Shown here one piece after another: positions 3,114-50,723 of a stretch of DNA of 64,000 bases. The DNA comes from a phage. The notes under the pieces were generated by a model. The model was not told the origin of the DNA. It ran no database searches and saw only the letters and a program-made list of their open reading frames with translations. The number at the start of each line of letters is the position of its first letter. Within the stretch, counting starts at the first letter, position 1. The position numbers and the translations under genes were made by a program. The DNA lies in NCBI GenBank assembly GCA_025823825.1, contig GCA_025823825.1_4720.1, one strand, 5' to 3'.

Positions 3114-4091
3114 TTACTTTTTCCTGAAAATTAATGTTGGTAAGCCGTTTCTTACAGCATAATACAACACTAAGAGGTTAATCTTACCTGCGGATACCGT
3201 AAGCATTTTACGACGACGTGGTAAACTAACCGGTACGGTAGACGCCATCGTTGCGCTGTTCTTGAACGTTTGGGAATAACGTCGCAGCGATGCTTCACCT
3301 AACAATGGAAGGAACAGATCCTCGGTAAGAATATCATCGCAGATATACGTAATCGCAAGTAACGGCGGATTCCACTCGTTCAGGAACTCGAAAATCTCGT
3401 TTGTGATACCCAACGCATTATTAGGAAGCGGAACCTCACGAACGTATTTCTGATTGCCTTTATCCAGCAGGATTCTTGACATACAGTAATCGTGGATTAT
3501 ACCCGCAACATCATCCGCTGTTTCTGCGTTCTGCATCAACGCCTGTGCTTCTTCCCAGGTCAGCTGACGTTTTGTTTCGTAGTAGGTTGGTTTCAAAACC
3601 GCGTAAAAATCGTGGATTAAGCGACCAACATCCCCACGGGTTTTTGTTGCTAACGCGATCGCGTACGCTTTCTTCTCCGCATCCGTTAAGATCTGATTAC
3701 GCCACAGTTCGTATTCGTCTAACAGCTCGGTGTATTTGGCTGTCCATTCAGAGGAAAGATAATAACCAATACTATCAATCATTGCACGTGTTAAAACACC
3801 CAGACGTTCGCGTCTTGGATCGACCGACGGCTCATAAACGAAAGGTAGCTTCGGTTTTTCAAAACCACCGGCTACGACGGTATCTGAAAAAGCGTTAGCA
3901 AAAACACCCATTGGTTTCCATGACGTAAGAAGATCCTGATATAGCATTGGATGAATGTTATTAATCGCAGTGAGTTTGTCATCGAAAAGACTAATGCTTG
4001 GATGTTCAGCATTCGCAAGCTCAAAATAAATTCTTTCGAGCAACGCCTTTACGACATCGCGTGTCTTATCAATTGGGCCAACAGAAGCCAT
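3114..4091 (-). CDS. hypothetical protein
   Basis: 325 aa ORF, no motif recognised. Confidence 0.55.
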   Translation of the reverse strand: MASVGPIDKTRDVVKALLERIYFELANAEHPSISLFDDKLTAINNIHPMLYQDLLTSWKPMGVFANAFSDTVVAGGFEKPKLPFVYEPSVDPRRERLGVLTRAMIDSIGYYLSSEWTAKYTELLDEYELWRNQILTDAEKKAYAIALATKTRGDVGRLIHDFYAVLKPTYYETKRQLTWEEAQALMQNAETADDVAGIIHDYCMSRILLDKGNQKYVREVPLPNNALGITNEIFEFLNEWNPPLLAITYICDDILTEDLFLPLLGEASLRRYSQTFKNSATMASTVPVSLPRRRKMLTVSAGKINLLVLYYAVRNGLPTLIFRKK

Positions 4092-6976: not shown

Positions 6977-7604
6977 TGATACCTTCTATTAGTTGTACAG
7001 CAACTTCTTTTTCGGTGCTATAAAAGAACTTGCGGTGGAACTGAACAAGAAGCTTTTCGAATTTACATTGAACGATCTTTTTGCGTTCGATATGACCCAG
7101 GGAGAGCAAAGCACCCATGCAACGTACCGCTTGTTCGAGAACTTGTTTCGCGGTATCGTGATCGTCCGGTAACGGTAAATCTTCCTCATCGTCTTTAGCG
7201 ATAAGGCGTCTGATGATGTTATCGATACGTATCTCATCACCGTTAATAAAAGCCCCCTTCTCCCAGTCATCGAATCGTTGATGGATTCGACGTTGTAAGT
7301 TGGCTCTGTCTTCCATTAACTCTTTCAACTGGCTTTCTAAGTGGGATACGGTACGGCGGTCGGTTTCAGTGAAGTTTTCCGATTCTTTGTACCACCAATC
7401 ATTACGCGATAGTAAATCGTTAACGCGCGAAATCGTCCGACGACACTCACTAACAAGCCCATCACCATTCGGTAGCTCCGTGCCGAAATAGCATTTGTAT
7501 TTATAACGCATAACACGGATTAAACGTTTCGCTAGAAAACCTTGCCTTTCCAGTTTCTTCTTCAGTTGTGTGTATTTCTCTTCTTTTGTTTCCATTAATT
7601 CCAT
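6963..7604 (-). CDS. hypothetical protein
   Basis: 213 aa ORF. Confidence 0.45.
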   Translation of the reverse strand: MELMETKEEKYTQLKKKLERQGFLAKRLIRVMRYKYKCYFGTELPNGDGLVSECRRTISRVNDLLSRNDWWYKESENFTETDRRTVSHLESQLKELMEDRANLQRRIHQRFDDWEKGAFINGDEIRIDNIIRRLIAKDDEEDLPLPDDHDTAKQVLEQAVRCMGALLSLGHIERKKIVQCKFEKLLVQFHRKFFYSTEKEVAVQLIEGINEVK

Positions 7605-7993
7605 GATGTTGTACCTCGTTCAGCAATCAGGAGAGTCGTGGTTGTGCTTTTCACTAATCTATTAAAGTCTTGATATATCCGCCTGAGGGATGGTTTCAAA
7701 TCACAATAACGGCTGAAATAAACCTTCAAGTCATCTTTTGTCACAGTCTCCGTATTTATTTTCGTAGAAACACCGAGATCGATAAACTCTTTTCTTAATT
7801 GGGATAATTCATCAAGAAGTCGATGGTGGCTTAGATAAATAACAGATTTATCGGATAACAACTCGCCGGTTATCCGGCTCTGGCGTTCATCGAAATATTG
7901 GAGCCGCCATTCAATTCGCTTACGTAATTTATCAAGTAAATCAACAAAAGCGGTATAGCTGTTAACGGCTAGGTTAACTTGACTCGTTATCAT
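7595..7993 (-). CDS. hypothetical protein
   Basis: 132 aa ORF. Confidence 0.4.
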   Translation of the reverse strand: MITSQVNLAVNSYTAFVDLLDKLRKRIEWRLQYFDERQSRITGELLSDKSVIYLSHHRLLDELSQLRKEFIDLGVSTKINTETVTKDDLKVYFSRYCDLKPSLRRIYQDFNRLVKSTTTTLLIAERGTTSWN

Positions 7994-10558: not shown

Positions 10559-11440
10559 TCAGTAACAGTTATAATGGGTTCCAAGCCGCTCCGGTTTTCT
10601 CAGAAGACTATCTTTAAGCGGTACGACGTCGATATCAACGTTTTCTGAATAATAACCATTAGAACTACCATACCAACGAATAACAACACATCCTTTTGCT
10701 GTACGAATATGGTAAAATGTCCATCGCGTACGTTTGCAAAAGTCGTCATCCTCGTCTCTTTCCTCGGTTCTTTCTTCAGCGCTAAGTATCTTCTCACCAA
10801 TAATGTCGTTAAGATCGCCATCGATGTCTTCAAGGTACACTTTTTCACAGCAATCTTGCTTATGGCAGAATTCAACAACGTTCCCATCGCCCCGATAGAA
10901 AAGAAGGGCAATGCTGTATTGTAGCTGTTCGGCCGTTAAGTCTGTCGCGCAATACAAACTTTGATCTTCGGTTATCACCAAGACATTGTTGATTACGTGT
11001 CCGGCAAGCGCTCCGATCTTATTTACCGTGATAATCGGACGAACGGGTTCAGGTTGAACGATCGGAATACGAACACAACCAATTAAGGCCATCCGTCCTT
11101 TCTTTGGTCTAACCGCAAGGTAAGGTGATTTTCTTGGGTGGTTATGCAGACGTATTTCTAATTCGTCAAATTTAATCCCGTATATACCTAAGAAACGATC
11201 GAACAACCGATGAAACTCATCTGTTGCTTCTTTCAACGTTATGGTGTCTACCGTGAGTTTATGTCCCCTGAACACCCGGGTTATATCGATAACGTCGAGT
11301 GTTTTAAAATGTATTTCCGTAAGGGGGTGATTTGTATTTTCCAGGTATGTAATGGTTCTTTGAACCGCGATTTTAGGTGACGCACCTTTAAAACGTTTCA
11401 GGTATTTAACACGATAGCGTGTATGATCTGATGTTAACAT
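10559..11440 (-). CDS. hypothetical protein
   Basis: ORF-track N-terminus reads through the upstream hairpin; start set at ATG 11440 (MLTSDHTRY) preceded by GGAGAGGAG. Confidence 0.5.
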   Translation of the reverse strand: MLTSDHTRYRVKYLKRFKGASPKIAVQRTITYLENTNHPLTEIHFKTLDVIDITRVFRGHKLTVDTITLKEATDEFHRLFDRFLGIYGIKFDELEIRLHNHPRKSPYLAVRPKKGRMALIGCVRIPIVQPEPVRPIITVNKIGALAGHVINNVLVITEDQSLYCATDLTAEQLQYSIALLFYRGDGNVVEFCHKQDCCEKVYLEDIDGDLNDIIGEKILSAEERTEERDEDDDFCKRTRWTFYHIRTAKGCVVIRWYGSSNGYYSENVDIDVVPLKDSLLRKPERLGTHYNCY

Positions 11441-11507
11441 TTTAATCTCCTCTCCCGACTTCAGAGAATTCTTAAAATCCGTTAGTTTTGATAGATGAGG
11501 TAAGACG

Positions 11508-46144: not shown

Positions 46145-46378
46145 TTAGCAATGGTTGTTAGTTGCTTCTATTTCGTCAAGATAAGGTTCTACGTCATCGC
46201 CCTCCACGAATTCGTTGAACCAGCAGTCAATGGTAGAAATAACCGGTGACTGGTGTTCACATTTCTTAGATACCTTAAAAGGTACGTTATTATCCATCAT
46301 ACCGAGTTCGGGTCGAAAACGCCCGAAATGTTTCGCAGTCCAAATGTCTGGGACGATATGGTTGTTCATCGTAGCGTT
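46145..46378 (-). CDS. RNA polymerase beta' N-terminal subunit, proposed exon 4
   Basis: NATMNNHIVPD...PELGMMDNNVPF aligns to bacterial beta' QMAVHVPL...ALMMSTNNILSP just after DFDGD. Confidence 0.55.
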   Translation of the reverse strand, partial: NATMNNHIVPDIWTAKHFGRFRPELGMMDNNVPFKVSKKCEHQSPVISTIDCWFNEFVEGDDVEPYLDEIEATNNHC

Positions 46379-46727
46379 CAGCATGAGTCGCTACCTCATG
46401 CCCGCAGCTTTACCTGCAGCTTCCGGTGTTACCGGAATGTCCAGAATACATCTTATCCATATTCCAAATGGAACGTAGGACTTCCGCGCTGGATCTCGCT
46501 TGAGACCACGTATTCGTTGAACGTTCTCCTGAACGGAGCTTCGCTGCTGATCGAACATTGTCATGTACGGTAGGCGTCCCCGAAGGGATTGTCATTGAAG
46601 CCGCGTACATCCGCTACCTTGTTTCTACCTTATCGGTTCCTCTTACGAGGCGTAGCGGCCTTAGCCCTTCCCAGCAATTCACGGAATCCAAGCTCTTCCT
46701 TTCGGAAGGCAGGGCCTATGATTAAGC
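46379..46727 (-). ncRNA. group I intron C (ORF-less), boundaries approximate
   Basis: Minus-strand P/Q/R/S-like elements AATTGCTGGGAAG, GATCAGCAGC, GTTCAACGAATA, AAGATGTATTCT; ends in G before exon 4. Confidence 0.5.
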
Positions 46728-46737
46728 ATCCCCGTCG
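46728..46737 (-). CDS. proposed 10-nt micro-exon 3 (C GAC GGG GAT, completes F and encodes DGD)
   Basis: Inferred from frame restoration, not observed. Confidence 0.4.
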
Positions 46738-47113
46738 CTGTTATCGACTATATCTTCATCCTCGTTGCGAGGAGTCTCCCGTTTTGGTCTGTGTTTAACA
46801 GAGCCTACTCTACTCGACATCGCGTCTTTCGATAGTCTGTGAGCACACATCTTAACGAACATTCGTGGATTCCTAAACAGGTGAACGTTCTTGTTGAGAT
46901 GCTTCGCTGCGGATTATTCCCGTCCTACCTCTTTTACCCTACCCAGTTCATTACGCTGGCCCTCATCTGTGTCACCACGATGAGTTGGTGTGTAGTCCGA
47001 TTACAGAAACTTCCCGTCAATTAGAGAGTTTTAACTACGTTCCTGTTACCAGAAACCAGATCCCGACGGTATCAATAAATCAACGTAAGTTATTGATTTA
47101 ATTGAAAAAACTG
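46738..47113 (-). ncRNA. group I intron B (ORF-less), boundaries approximate
   Basis: Minus-strand AATTGACGGGAAG (P), AATCCGCAGC (Q), GCTCACAGACTATCG (R), AAGATATAGTCG (S) in canonical order; GGTAGGGTAAAAG P5-like. Confidence 0.6.
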
Positions 47114-47126
47114 AAATCTGCATTAT
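47114..47126 (-). CDS. proposed 13-nt micro-exon 2 (AT AAT GCA GAT TT, completes Y and encodes NAD)
   Basis: Joining exon 1 ...AAA GGG T to this gives MILKG-YNADF; preceded by G, ends in U. Confidence 0.4.
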
Positions 47127-47492
47127 CTTAATCTTCAGTATGGTTCGCTACTCCATACCCGTACGTCATGTACTGCTTACGTCTTTCACGTAAGAAGAGA
47201 CTATATCTTTCACCCTCAGCATTATCTGGTCGGGGCTCCCATTTCGGCGGTCAGATGACCGGTGGTTTCCCACGCCGCTTGGCCCTAACGCCCGTAAGCG
47301 ATAGTCGTTGAGCGCATCTCCGTTCTGGAGACTTCGCTGCGGATTCCCCAATCCTTGCCGCTTTTACCATACCTGAATGATTAGTTCAGCCCCACGCTCT
47401 GTTCCCAGGCGTGGTTGGTGGACAAGGCTCTAAGTAGGTTCCCGCATTAGAGAGTTCTGCGTGACAACATTTCTGCGTTACTGGGCCTAACG
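47127..47492 (-). ncRNA. group I intron A (ORF-less), boundaries approximate
   Basis: Minus-strand TAATGCGGGAACC (P), AATCCGCAGC (Q), GCTCAACGACTATCG (R), AAGATATAGTC (S); GGTATGGTAAAAGCG P5-like; GCCC near 5' end can pair with exon GGGU. Confidence 0.6.
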
Positions 47493-48735
47493 ACCCTTTC
47501 AAGATCATCACGCTTAACCCGATGGTGTTATCCTGCGGATCGCGTTTAACCTTGGTGATTTCAAGACATTGGTTACTGCTTCGGTCAAGTGATGGGTTTC
47601 GAACAAAGCCACACACAATCCCATCGAACGGTGTATCAGCAATAAGCTCATCGTGCAGCTCGCTCATCATTGGATGATAATTACGGACATGTTCCGCAAC
47701 GAACGCACGTGCTGCTCTCGGTGAATAACCACGATGGAATAACTTGGATTGGATATGTTCTTTATTGGTTAAAGTAAATGGTGCGTATGGGAAATGCAGA
47801 TGATAATAACGATGGTTCGCTGTTATCGAACTGATTACGGTACGCGTGGTGAATGGATGTAATGTACCTAATATGTTTTTACGTGTGATACCTTTCTTCT
47901 TACCAATGAACTCATCGAAAATTGCTGCGTGGTATTGCAGTAGCTTCAATTGCACTTTCGCCATCCAGTTTTCTTTCTTTCTGGCGCTCAAAGGTGTTGT
48001 TGGGTGATAGATACTGTTCAACGTACCAATAGCATCGATCGCACCTTCCATTTTGCTATCTGCATAACGACCGGTTGGCGTATTCTCGATAACGAACATC
48101 ATGGCCGCAGGAAAGCTGATATACTGGCTGAAGAACTTATCACGATGGATACGGATGAATTCTCGTAGCGTGTCAACTTTCTCCGTGTTCTTCGGTCCAC
48201 GTAACGTAGGTCCTTTATACAAGATCTCCATTATGCGATCGAAGTTCTGTATAAAGCTATTTACGCCGCGACGTATCCCGAATACATCGAATTGCTGCTC
48301 CAGATAGTTCTTGAGTTCGATGGGTCGTTTTACATTTGGACGGTAACTGGCATCAATGAGCCACGTCATCGTTTCAAAGCTTTTGATATTCAACTCGCTT
48401 GCCAGCACGAGATGGACCAACGGGTTAATGAACGCATCAATTCCTTCAGGAACACGCGCCCAAACCGTCGAACGAATCTCCTGTTCTGCCGGGTAGGTCA
48501 CGACCGTTTTACAGTTTGGACACACCGTGCCGAGTAGCTCACCACGATTGTAGAAACCACAACCACATTGTGGTGTGATATCCAACGTATCGCTGGAGTA
48601 AACACGGGTGATAAAACTGTTTAATTTCTTCTTCTCTTCGACGACTTTTGTATCGTAATCATTCAACAAAATCGGCGTAAAAGGAAGTTCTGCGAGCTGT
48701 CTATCGAAACTCACGATATCGAGCATGATGGCCAT
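47493..48735 (-). CDS. RNA polymerase beta' N-terminal subunit, exon 1
   Basis: Zinc ribbon CGCG...CPNC, GRYADS, KNILGTLHPFTTRTVIS, RNPSLDRSSNQ in beta' order; ORF ends just before DFDGD would be expected; 35-aa ORF tail is intron read-through. Confidence 0.65.
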
Positions 48736-48827: not shown

Positions 48828-50723
48828 TTAGAACAGGTTGAATGCCCCACCCATGTTGTTAACGCCAACATTCGGACGATCGCTACGTGCGTAGATGTTA
48901 CCGGAGATGTTACCCAGACCACGAGCACGTGCTGCCATGTTACCACGAACAGCGGTACCTGCCAGATGCTGGATGTTCTCAGGACGGATGGTGAAGCCAG
49001 CATCAGCAGCAGCTTCGATCAGCGCCTGCAGTGCTAACGGATCGAAGTCGTAACGCATTGCCCAGCCGGTTTGTTCCCAGCTACCAGACAGAACACGATC
49101 GATGATTTCGTGACGAGCGACAACACGCTGAGACATCGTCATATCGGTACGGTCGAAGCTGTCTTCCCAAGCTTCTACGGTATCCGGGTTAGTGATGTTC
49201 ATCATGTACAGATCGTCCATATCACGAATATCGTGACGGTGACCATCCTGGTGGTTGTAGTGACCCAGCGGGATACGGTTACCGGTAGCGTAGACCAGCG
49301 GTAAGCCGTATTGATATTTCTTGCTGAAGCAACCCAGGGTAACATCATCGAAGGCACGGTAGAGTGCTTTGTAACCTTCAGAGACTTCCCGAACATCAGC
49401 CTCAACATTACCCGTATAGATCTTCTCAGCCGCCGGGATCATACGCAGCAGCCAGCTGTATTCGCCTTCTTCCGGTACGTCGATAGAAATCAGCAGGGAC
49501 GGATACAGTACCTGTTGCAGGAACTTGTAAATCTGCTCATTGGTTTGAGTAGACAGATCCAGCGGTGCGGTAACTTCCGGATCCAGCACCATCGCCAGAG
49601 CACCCGGGTTATGCGGACCGATACCACGAGCAGCGTTGCTGATTAAAGACTGCGCCCATGCCATGCCGCTGTTCAGCGTAGCGATGGTGCCAATCAGACC
49701 CAACACGAAAGTGTTCGGTGTGAACGCATCCAGCTCCAGCGGGTAAGCGCTGGTCATCACGTAACGCGGCTGGTATTGTACAGTCGGCGGTACCGGATAA
49801 CCGTTAACCAGAACAGGGCCTTGGTTGAAGGTCGGGTTCTGCGGGCTGTAAGTCAGGTCAATGTAACCGGTGGTGGCGACCAGACGCTGTTGACTATCGT
49901 AATCGCTCATCGCTTGACGGATGCGGTTAGAGATAGTTACAGTGATGTCAGAACGCACAGGGTTACCAACAATATCGCTGTCCTGCATACCGCTGGTGTT
50001 GTACTGAACGCTGCTGATTGGCTGATCGCTTGCCATCATGCCCAGGTTGAACTGCGGCAGACCCAGTTTATCACCGAGACGGATTTCGATTGCGGTCTGG
50101 ATTGCGTTATCTGCAGCAGACAGCAGGGTGGTCGCCAGATGCGCAGATTCAGCGGTGATTTCATTGGTCACCACAGCCAGACCAGCGATACGAGCAGTAC
50201 CATTAGACTTACCGCCAATAGCTGCATACATTGCCGCCATGACTTCGTTGATGAACGTACCGTTCAGGTTATCAACCCAGGTACGCGGTACCAGAATGTT
50301 ACCATGCGGACCTTGTTCTTCACGACGCGGCAGCGGAGCCAAACCGGCAACCAGCGGAAGCACATAACCGAAGAAGTGGTTATGATCACCAACTTTTGCA
50401 CCACTCATAACGACCAGGGTCGGATACGGTACGCTGTACTGGTTCGGGTCAACCGCAACAAAGATGAAGTCGTCTTTGAACTGGGTATCTTCCAGATATT
50501 TCTCCATCAGACGACGGAGATTCAGTACCTGCTCGGAGCCGGTATTACGGCTGATACGACGGCTCAGTGTACGGTTGATCGTACGCATCGTATGAGTTAC
50601 TTTAGGACGGTCGGCAAAATCTGCAGCGGTTTCCAGCGCCTCATCAGCACGTTGTGCGGTGCGGGTTTCAGCTGCACGAATTTCTACATTATCGTTACCG
50701 TTATTACGTACGTCTAAGCCCAT
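48828..50723 (-). CDS. abundant early protein, candidate phage-nucleus shell protein (chimallin-like); alternative structural protein not excluded
   Basis: 631 aa, strong AGAGGA RBS, promoter motif copy 4 upstream, hairpin downstream; product is inference from context and length. Confidence 0.4.
   Translation of the reverse strand: MGLDVRNNGNDNVEIRAAETRTAQRADEALETAADFADRPKVTHTMRTINRTLSRRISRNTGSEQVLNLRRLMEKYLEDTQFKDDFIFVAVDPNQYSVPYPTLVVMSGAKVGDHNHFFGYVLPLVAGLAPLPRREEQGPHGNILVPRTWVDNLNGTFINEVMAAMYAAIGGKSNGTARIAGLAVVTNEITAESAHLATTLLSAADNAIQTAIEIRLGDKLGLPQFNLGMMASDQPISSVQYNTSGMQDSDIVGNPVRSDITVTISNRIRQAMSDYDSQQRLVATTGYIDLTYSPQNPTFNQGPVLVNGYPVPPTVQYQPRYVMTSAYPLELDAFTPNTFVLGLIGTIATLNSGMAWAQSLISNAARGIGPHNPGALAMVLDPEVTAPLDLSTQTNEQIYKFLQQVLYPSLLISIDVPEEGEYSWLLRMIPAAEKIYTGNVEADVREVSEGYKALYRAFDDVTLGCFSKKYQYGLPLVYATGNRIPLGHYNHQDGHRHDIRDMDDLYMMNITNPDTVEAWEDSFDRTDMTMSQRVVARHEIIDRVLSGSWEQTGWAMRYDFDPLALQALIEAAADAGFTIRPENIQHLAGTAVRGNMAARARGLGNISGNIYARSDRPNVGVNNMGGAFNLF

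Follow-up and report, generated by a model that had tools for sequence, protein, structure and literature searches.

Where is the catalytic motif of a polymerase subunit whose reading frame ends just short of it? The question is raised by a minus-strand gene at positions 46145-48735 of a 64,000-nt stretch of phage DNA (contig GCA_025823825.1_4720.1 of NCBI GenBank assembly GCA_025823825.1; "the window" below means this whole stretch). A 449-aa open reading frame (ORF) of this gene, 47386..48735, resembles the beta' subunit of the non-virion RNA polymerase (nvRNAP) and departs from the beta' frame exactly before YNADFDGD. The 3.2 kb around it are 98.2% identical to Escherichia phage vB_EcoM_Goslar, and the window as a whole is colinear with Goslar 123.6-186.2 kb at 92-98% identity; by this measure the source phage is a close relative of Goslar, a nucleus-forming E. 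coli jumbo phage.

The answer proposed here, with a probability of roughly 0.88, is that three tandem group I introns without ORFs split the nvRNAP beta' gene, the catalytic motif being rebuilt in the RNA from micro-exons. This was the core claim of a first-pass annotation made from the letters of the window, and it holds. The parts of the gene, and the gene upstream of it, are as follows:

Exon 1, 47493..48735, minus strand: 1243 nt; codes for Met1 to Gly414 and ends with the U that opens the Tyr415 codon; holds the zinc-ribbon cysteines
Intron 1, 47127..47492, minus strand: putative group I intron, 366 nt, no ORF
Micro-exon 2, 47114..47126, minus strand: 13 nt, AUAAUGCAGAUUU; (T)AT AAT GCA GAT TT, or Y415 (2/3), N416, A417, D418, F419 (2/3)
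Intron 2, 46738..47113, minus strand: putative group I intron, 376 nt, no ORF
Micro-exon 3, 46725..46737, minus strand: most likely 13 nt, CGACGGGGAUGCU; (TT)C GAC GGG GAT GCT, or F419 (1/3), D420, G421, D422, A423
Intron 3, 46370..46724, minus strand: putative group I intron, most likely 355 nt, no ORF
Exon 4, 46145..46369, minus strand: 225 nt, the stop codon counted; runs from M424 NNHIVPDIWTAK... to the last residue, 497
Chimallin (nuclear shell protein) gene, 48828..50723, minus strand: directly upstream of the nvRNAP gene; 'nuclear shell protein' in the Goslar annotation

Gene Identity and Neighborhood

The annotation had described the 449-aa ORF as carrying a zinc ribbon and ending before NADFDGD, and both points are borne out: cysteines C57, C59, C72 and C75 are present and, together with NADFDGD, are invariant among 34 aligned sequences. 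In the gp55-family gene of the window the motif exists only after splicing, and no contiguous DFDGD-coding stretch is found in any frame of the 64 kb; the window thus holds no intact copy of the kind that the annotation had named as grounds for doubt.

When the proposed introns are removed, the conceptual product matches PHROG 2987 ('RNA polymerase beta subunit') over residues 1-476 (E 5e-131), scores above the cutoff for Pfam RNA_pol_Rpb1_2, and aligns with phiKZ gp55 (PDB 7OGP chain A; E 5e-73) colinearly over residues 21-478, across all three junctions, which is the alignment the annotation had proposed as a check. Exon 4, whose product aligns to phiKZ gp55 residues 443-495, is hidden in a called ORF of 79 aa (46384-46145) with its start codon within intron 3. 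The location is also that of the family: the gene lies directly downstream of the chimallin gene (Pfam PF25677), and the same chimallin-gp55 neighborhood is seen in every related contig examined (Goslar, L003 and L005-L009). Taken together, homology and synteny identify the gene as that of the nvRNAP beta'-N subunit, homologous to phiKZ gp55, the source of the DFDGD loop that holds the catalytic Mg (PMC8287921).

Are the Intervening Sequences Group I Introns?

The Rfam covariance model for group I introns (RF00028; gathering score 50 bits) finds no match in the window at its gathering threshold. With sub-threshold matches taken by E-value, it recovers intron 2 (46738-47104, 46.9 bits, E 8.5e-9) and intron 1 (47177-47513, 32.0 bits, E 2.4e-4), with E-values calculated on the whole window and alignments that run the full length of the model (1-253), and intron 3 in part (46482-46686, 16.7 bits, E 0.05-0.27), covering P3-P6 and the return strand of P3. 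The search that the annotation had suggested therefore gives significant E-values for introns 1 and 2, while the placement of all three introns below 50 bits, with a partial match only for intron 3, weighs against the assignment. Some score is lost to long inserts at the periphery, located in P5 and in the segment from P7 to P3'.

Conserved core elements are found in canonical order (P3-P6, P7 formed by the R and S elements, P8, P9), with the P3/P7 pseudoknot, and P7 is paired 6/6 in each of the three introns. The P-, Q-, R- and S-like strings quoted in the annotation are all present: AATCCGCAGC and AAGATATAGTC in introns 1 and 2, GCTCACAGACTATCG in intron 2, and diverged versions (GATCAGCAGC, GTTCAACGAATACG, AAGATGTATTC) in intron 3. 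A U at the end of the 5' exon lies opposite a guide-sequence G in P1, the site at intron 3 being less certain; all three introns end, as annotated, in the omega-G, and P10 pairings can be drawn. Exact removal of the introns restores the frame, and intron-less alleles are known, the related contigs L003 and L004 having none of the three.

An intron-encoded homing endonuclease gene was looked for within the introns and none was found. The minus-strand intron ORFs are just 46-66 aa long and have no Pfam match, so that the annotation's description of about 1.1 kb of non-coding sequence on this strand, and of the introns as ORF-less, is correct. An intein was rejected as an alternative: in-frame stops follow 27, 5 and 0 codons past the three 5' junctions.

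Intron 3, the poorest match to the Rfam model, can be folded into P2, P3, P4, P5, P6, P6a, P7, P7.1, P8, P9, P9.1 and P9.2, in canonical order and with 63/63 standard pairs. In P7 it has GAAUAC/GUAUUC where introns 1 and 2 have GACUAU/AUAGUC, so that two pairs are changed and both are fully compensated. Over positions 174-214 it is 90% identical to the L008 intron (76 bits) and 89% identical to the L006 intron (87.8 bits), both of which pass the Rfam threshold and lie at the same motif of the homologous gene in other chimalliviruses, and the intron as a whole is kept at 99% identity in Goslar and in L090, a third genome, from a Logan assembly, that carries all three introns. Judged by its predicted fold and its relatives, intron 3 is a real group I intron. 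The T4 td intron, of subgroup IA2, has extra P7.1 helices between P7 and P3' and a guide sequence a few bases into the intron; the start of intron 3 (UAAU..., with an immediate in-frame stop) resembles td, a likeness of general features rather than of aligned sequence.

Junctions of Introns 1 and 2

The first junction can be read directly from Goslar, in which intron 1 is precisely absent at the predicted borders: the sequence runs ...AAAGGT^TATAATGCCGACTT without interruption (^ marks a junction), or, in codons, ...ATC CTC AAA GGT TAT AAT GCC GAC TT^C... Goslar is thus a natural intron-1-less allele, which proves the exon 1/exon 2 junction. Within the intron, the first ten bases (CGUUAGGCCC, 47492-47483) form a guide sequence that makes 9/10 pairs with the ligated junction GGGU^AUAAUG, P1 consisting of the exon 1 end GGGU with GCCC (U.G at the splice site) and P10 of UAAUG of micro-exon 2 with CGUUA; P7 is GACUAU/AUAGUC and the last base is G. 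L090, whose micro-exon 2 is identical, has a G to A change at base 2 of the intron that converts a U.G pair of P10 to U-A. Four changes mapped near the 3' end of its intron 1 all fall in hairpin loops, and three more lie near the 5' end, at intron positions 30, 34 and 35.

Intron 1 has partial counterparts in other phages, among them introns in the DNA polymerase genes of Av-05-like coliphages, SPO1-like Bacillus phages and phage EL. The similarity, at window positions 47320-47410, amounts to 69-86% identity with segments within or next to DNA polymerase genes of unrelated phages and with a PhiPA3 locus at 74677-74762, which suggests that this intron type has spread horizontally.

In intron 2 the guide sequence lies further in, at intron positions 45-57 (47069-47057): CCGUCG-GGAUCUG pairs 13/13 with the ligated junction CAGAUUU^CGACGG, a match reached by 0/5000 shuffles. 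P1 is then CAGAUUU/GGAUCUG and P10 the 6-bp CGACGG/CCGUCG, followed by P2 at 47056-47039, P7 at 46837-46832 / 46751-46746, and a final G. Goslar offers a test of the pairing. Its micro-exon 2 differs by two synonymous changes (GCA to GCC, GAT to GAC), and its guide reads GAGUCGG instead of GGAUCUG, pairing 7/7 with the Goslar exon end CCGACUU; two double compensatory changes thus keep a 7/7 P1 in both phages, in an intron that is nearly identical apart from the guide. This P1 covariation, with the 6-bp P10, fixes both borders of intron 2. Micro-exon 2, which the annotation had placed at 47126-47114, is confirmed from both sides, by the Goslar allele and by the intron 2 guide match.

In Goslar, intron 2 (labeled 'Intron_gpI' in the record) is enlarged by a 1065-nt insert that holds an ORF for a 337-aa HNH/NUMOD endonuclease; the insert sits 3 nt ahead of the intron's 3' end, where the window has CAG only.

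Borders of Intron 3

The start of micro-exon 3 at 46737, as annotated, follows from the borders of intron 2. Where does this exon end, and where does exon 4 begin? Probably, though with less certainty than for the first two introns, the exon ends at 46725 (GAU GCU^) and exon 4 starts at 46369 (G^AUG AAC), for a product reading DFDGDAMNNH. Intron 3 would then begin with a guide region, UAAUCAUAGGCCCUG (46724-46710), and end with G46370 as omega-G.

The homologs argue for these borders. All 33 of the 33 uninterrupted ones read DFDGD-[A/E/Q]-[MLIVC]-[NSTP], with exactly one residue after DFDGD and no gap in 27 columns; the nearest versions are DFDGDAMNHH (64% identical overall) and DFDGDEMNNH, and the uninterrupted L003 gene reads GAT GCC ATG AAC. 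Against a profile of these 33 homologs the product scores 585.6 bits. The U before the 5' site is conserved in all three genomes: micro-exon 3 of Goslar, CGACGGUGACGCU, is a synonymous version, in which a U at -1 is kept only if the exon ends at 46725. Lastly, AUGA of the 3' exon can form P10 with intron positions 4-7 (UCAU).

Several features of the RNA weigh against this choice. P1 at these borders is short, with three exon pairs (GCU/GGC) and two intron pairs (UA/UA), and the complementarity at the junction is no better than that of shuffles. The guide GGCCCUG pairs 4/7 here, as opposed to 6/7 with CGGGGAU at a site directly after GAU; the related PA7 and phiKZ introns are inserted at that very point, right after GAU of DFDGD; and a 2-bp P9.0 (GG/CU) can be drawn directly before G46379.

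These same features favor the borders of the first-pass annotation, in which micro-exon 3 has 10 nt (46737-46728), intron 3 runs 46727-46379, and exon 4 begins at 46378, for a product reading DFDGD-NAT-MNNH; in the window this exon also ends in U and this intron in G. Such borders are nevertheless improbable. The product would have a two-residue insertion after the catalytic aspartates that is seen in 0/33 homologs, and it scores 577.1 bits (-8.5). The corresponding Goslar exon would end in C (GGU GAC^G) without compensation in the guide, unlike the intron 2 guide. The codons of the extra 'NAT' do not behave as coding sequence either: GCT becomes ACC in Goslar and ACT in L090, for NTT in both, and these changes are non-synonymous, as against 30/31 synonymous changes (Goslar) and 26/27 (L090) elsewhere. 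No P10 can be drawn for AACGCU, the proposed start of exon 4. The annotation had also misquoted one base there, giving AAC GCT ACA ATG for AAC GCT ACG ATG.

A third combination would take the 5' site after GAU (46728) and the 3' site at 46370^46369. It would have both the best-paired P1 of the window (6/7) and the one P10 that can be drawn (AUGA/UCAU), at the insertion point of PA7 and phiKZ and with the reading frame preserved. Its product, DFDGD-MNNH, would be one residue shorter than all relatives, dropping a residue after DFDGD that is present in 33/33 homologs, and would score 576.5 bits (-9); the C at -1 in Goslar counts against it as well. Cellular RNA polymerases also have a residue at this place (DFDGDQ / DFDGDE). 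These borders are very unlikely, and 46725 and 46369 are retained below.

Some further options were rejected. A pairing of the P9.2 loop (GUAGCG) with the 3' tail of intron 3 (CGCUAC) is broken by Goslar changes. Among other splice combinations that keep the frame, an exon ending GCUU combined with 46374 fails because G46375 is A in Goslar and L090, and 3' sites after 46373 or 46376 would leave an intron whose last base is not G.

A Functional Gene or Its Remains?

Between the window and Goslar the 1494-nt spliced coding sequence has 31 differences, 30 of them synonymous; between the window and L090 there are 27, of which 26 are synonymous and one changes an amino acid, with exon 4 contributing three, all synonymous. 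This is the signature of a spliced frame that is under strong purifying selection. The differences from Goslar are also unevenly spread: 7/31 lie within 33 nt around the three junctions, all synonymous (P = 2.5e-5 versus the rest of the gene), a pattern that co-conversion during homing would be expected to leave, as would divergence of the sites that endonucleases target.

Could the locus instead be a decaying pseudogene, or encode separate polypeptides that are never joined, the intervening RNAs being dead relics? The public records can be read in this way, as the Goslar entries of GenBank and RefSeq list two distinct proteins, one of 423 aa and one of 79 aa. In the Goslar record (NC_048170.1, 167622-170910; L001 3266-6554) the nvRNAP beta'-N gene appears as gp247 (423 aa, running into intron 2), the ncRNA 'Intron_gpI', the HNH endonuclease gp186 and the 79-aa hypothetical protein gp185, which starts inside intron 3; micro-exon 3 and intron 3 have no annotation. 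Moreover, splicing of the homologous phiKZ introns was not seen by ONT-cappable-seq under the conditions used (PMC10914365), a result that also counts against splicing in the window. Without splicing, however, no polypeptide would contain DFDGD, which is encoded nowhere else in the window; in three independent genomes the exons, the two micro-exons among them, are retained under strong purifying selection; the guide sequence co-varies with the exon; and the intron cores are intact. Goslar is a viable and much-studied phage (PMC12908238), and the solved phiKZ nvRNAP contains a joined PHIKZ055/056.1 chain. A dead or permanently divided gene is accordingly hardly credible.

What the comparisons support directly is the gene family, the synteny, the intron folds, the exon 1/exon 2 junction, the borders of intron 2 and purifying selection. 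Beyond these, all three introns are presumably spliced, by self-splicing with GTP, and they may have arrived by homing and then lost an endonuclease gene, or never carried one.

Predicted Splicing of the Transcript

The precursor transcript would be about 2.6 kb long, and removal of introns of 366, 376 and about 355 nt would yield a message for a 497-aa protein. The exons are predicted to join as ...MILKG + U ^ AUAAUGCAGAUUU ^ CGACGGGGAUGCU ^ AUGAAC..., or ...MILKG-YNADFDGDA-MNNHIVPD, the Mg-binding DFDGD loop thus being coded across exon 1, two 13-nt micro-exons and exon 4. The corresponding cDNA should read GGGT^ATAATGCAGATTT^CGACGGGGATGCT^ATGAAC, and a tryptic peptide spanning all three junctions should be GYNADFDGDAMNNHIVPDIWTAK.

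The precursor RNA would consist in this region of three ribozymes with 13-nt exons between them, and nearly all of each micro-exon would serve as a pairing partner, its 5' part for the P10 of the upstream intron and its 3' part for the P1 of the downstream one. In micro-exon 2, bases 2-6 would enter P10 of intron 1 and bases 7-13 P1 of intron 2; in micro-exon 3, P10 of intron 2 would take up bases 1-6, and P1 of intron 3 the GCU at the end of the exon. Loss of 13 or 26 nt, that is, of one or both micro-exons, shifts the frame, so all three introns need accurate removal, and an active polymerase subunit would be made only if each of the three splicing events is completed at the right sites. The core strands of introns 1 and 2 are nearly identical, so that hybrid folding and exon skipping are conceivable, as in orf142 of Staphylococcus phage Twort. 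Since transcription is separated from translation in these phages, splicing would have to be completed without the help of ribosomes, although this is speculative.

Insertions at the Same Motif in Related Phages

How unusual is an interruption at this point? Among 54 homolog clusters (E <= 1e-10), 13 stop within or beside NADFDGD, at five or more different points:

Between G and Y: 1 homolog cluster
After NAD: 4 homolog clusters
After DFD: 1 homolog cluster
After DFDG: 6 homolog clusters
After DFDGD: 1 homolog cluster

Among the homologs whose DNA was retrieved, group I introns above the Rfam threshold lie at the motif in L006, L008 and PA7, and introns at the motif carry HNH ORFs in L005, L006, L007, L009, PA7 and Serratia phage Totoro. 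At the site after DFDG both states are found, an ORF-less version in Serratia phage 2050HW and an HNH-containing version in Totoro. Erwinia phage pEa_SNUABM_54 (L095) also has a group I intron at the motif.

Some details of these relatives can be added. The L095 intron (around 2560-2600 and 3895-3910) pairs through its bases 1-7 (AGAGCGU) with bases 2-8 of the 3' exon (ACGCUCU) and through its bases 9-15 with the 5' exon, a textbook contiguous P10-P1 guide in the lineage of intron 3. In L009 (4670-4740), where the intron follows DFD, the best P1 pairs the last exon U with A (UUUCGAU/AUCGAAA); either this intron is an exception to the U.G rule or the drawn junction is off. An Rfam scan of 14 loci with matches ending near residue 424 found introns only in L030 and L034. 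In L034 the gp55-like match ends at query residue 382, and the intron, at 7164-7358 (83.4 bits, above the Rfam threshold), follows about 1.4 kb further downstream; it may mark a further insertion site near the RNPSL motif, where P0038 also breaks. PA7 (L030) came from a scan of viral contigs with protein alignment, keyed on NADFDGD as a pattern; such a scan returns genes with an uninterrupted motif only, and is therefore no census of interrupted ones.

Group I introns have been described before in active-site codons of essential phage genes, and in phiKZ gp55 at this very motif, so that the kind of interruption is familiar and the arrangement in the window, with three introns and two 13-nt exons, is an extreme case of it. 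In phiKZ, introns have been reported in gp55/gp56, gp71-73/gp72 and gp179/gp180 (PMC11512511, PMC10914365), and the PDB chain of the nvRNAP bears the joint name PHIKZ055/PHIKZ056.1; in PhiPA3 one has been reported in gp65-66 (PMC11077065). A literature search found no paper on introns in the polymerase gene of Goslar-type phages. The window shares with phiKZ and PA7 the gene family (nvRNAP beta'-N), the chimallin neighborhood and a group I intron at the DFDGD codons, and its intron 3 shares core sequence with their intron lineage. The PA7 intron (phiKZ-like; 74.8 bits) sits right after GAU, with P1 GGAGAU/GUCUCC and a next exon that encodes QLNLTLMPD. In phiKZ and PA7 there is one intron with an HNH gene (gp56 in phiKZ), as against three in the window, none of which carries an endonuclease gene; the points of insertion lie a few bases apart, and introns 1 and 2 of the window belong to another sequence subgroup (P4 GCGGG/CCGC, P7 GACUAU). 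Goslar has introns 2 and 3 and both flanking exons as in the window, and differs in lacking intron 1 and in the HNH/NUMOD insert of intron 2.

Two other systems invite comparison. Twort orf142 likewise has three group I introns within one phage gene, with an internal exon of no more than 23 nt; exon skipping occurs in it, and two of the introns are alike, as introns 1 and 2 of the window are (PMC10136302, citing Landthaler and Shub 1999). The window differs in having two internal exons of 13 nt, inside a catalytic motif; these are shorter than the bacterial and phage examples found in the literature (23 nt in Twort, 34 nt in Coxiella 23S rRNA). In PhiPA3, the gp211/209 intron encodes the gp210 endonuclease, which acts in competition between co-infecting phages (PMC11620839). 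As in the window, a chimallivirus RNA polymerase gene is cut at conserved aspartate codons by an HNH-type group I intron; unlike in the window, the gene is that of the virion polymerase and of a beta subunit, and there is a single intron with an active endonuclease.

Possible Roles and Significance

At least five insertion points within or beside the 21 bases coding for NADFDGD make this a homing hot spot, which bears on the idea of a 'weaponised intron endonuclease'. One tentative extension is that the catalytic-loop codons are a battlefield of HNH endonucleases from co-infecting phages, and that the three introns are kept as a defense rather than as mere parasites: every inserted intron destroys one endonuclease target, and the intron stack, together with the cluster of synonymous changes, would make the essential polymerase gene immune to the endonucleases of several competitors at once. 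This is doubtful, and the odds are against it.

The reconstruction has some practical consequences. GenBank and RefSeq show the catalytic subunit of the nvRNAP of Goslar-type phages as fragments with no stated relation and omit the active-site exon; for structural, proteomic and knock-down studies of this widely used model of nucleus-forming phages, the correct 497-aa product is of importance. The 13-nt exons also offer a natural case in which to see how ribozymes packed close together use a single short exon for both P10 and P1, and whether exons are skipped.

Other Features of the Window

Elsewhere in the window, an 850-nt segment (1864-2713) is absent from Goslar and contains a minus-strand ORF (1871-2698) for a 275-aa D12-class N6-adenine DNA methyltransferase (Pfam PF02086, E 2e-60). 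There are two more insertions relative to Goslar, at 7594-7989 and 10559-11450; one has a 132-aa ORF without a Pfam match, the other a 326-aa ORF with DUF7448 (E 2e-24), and the insertion with the DUF7448 ORF adjoins the thymidylate synthase region.

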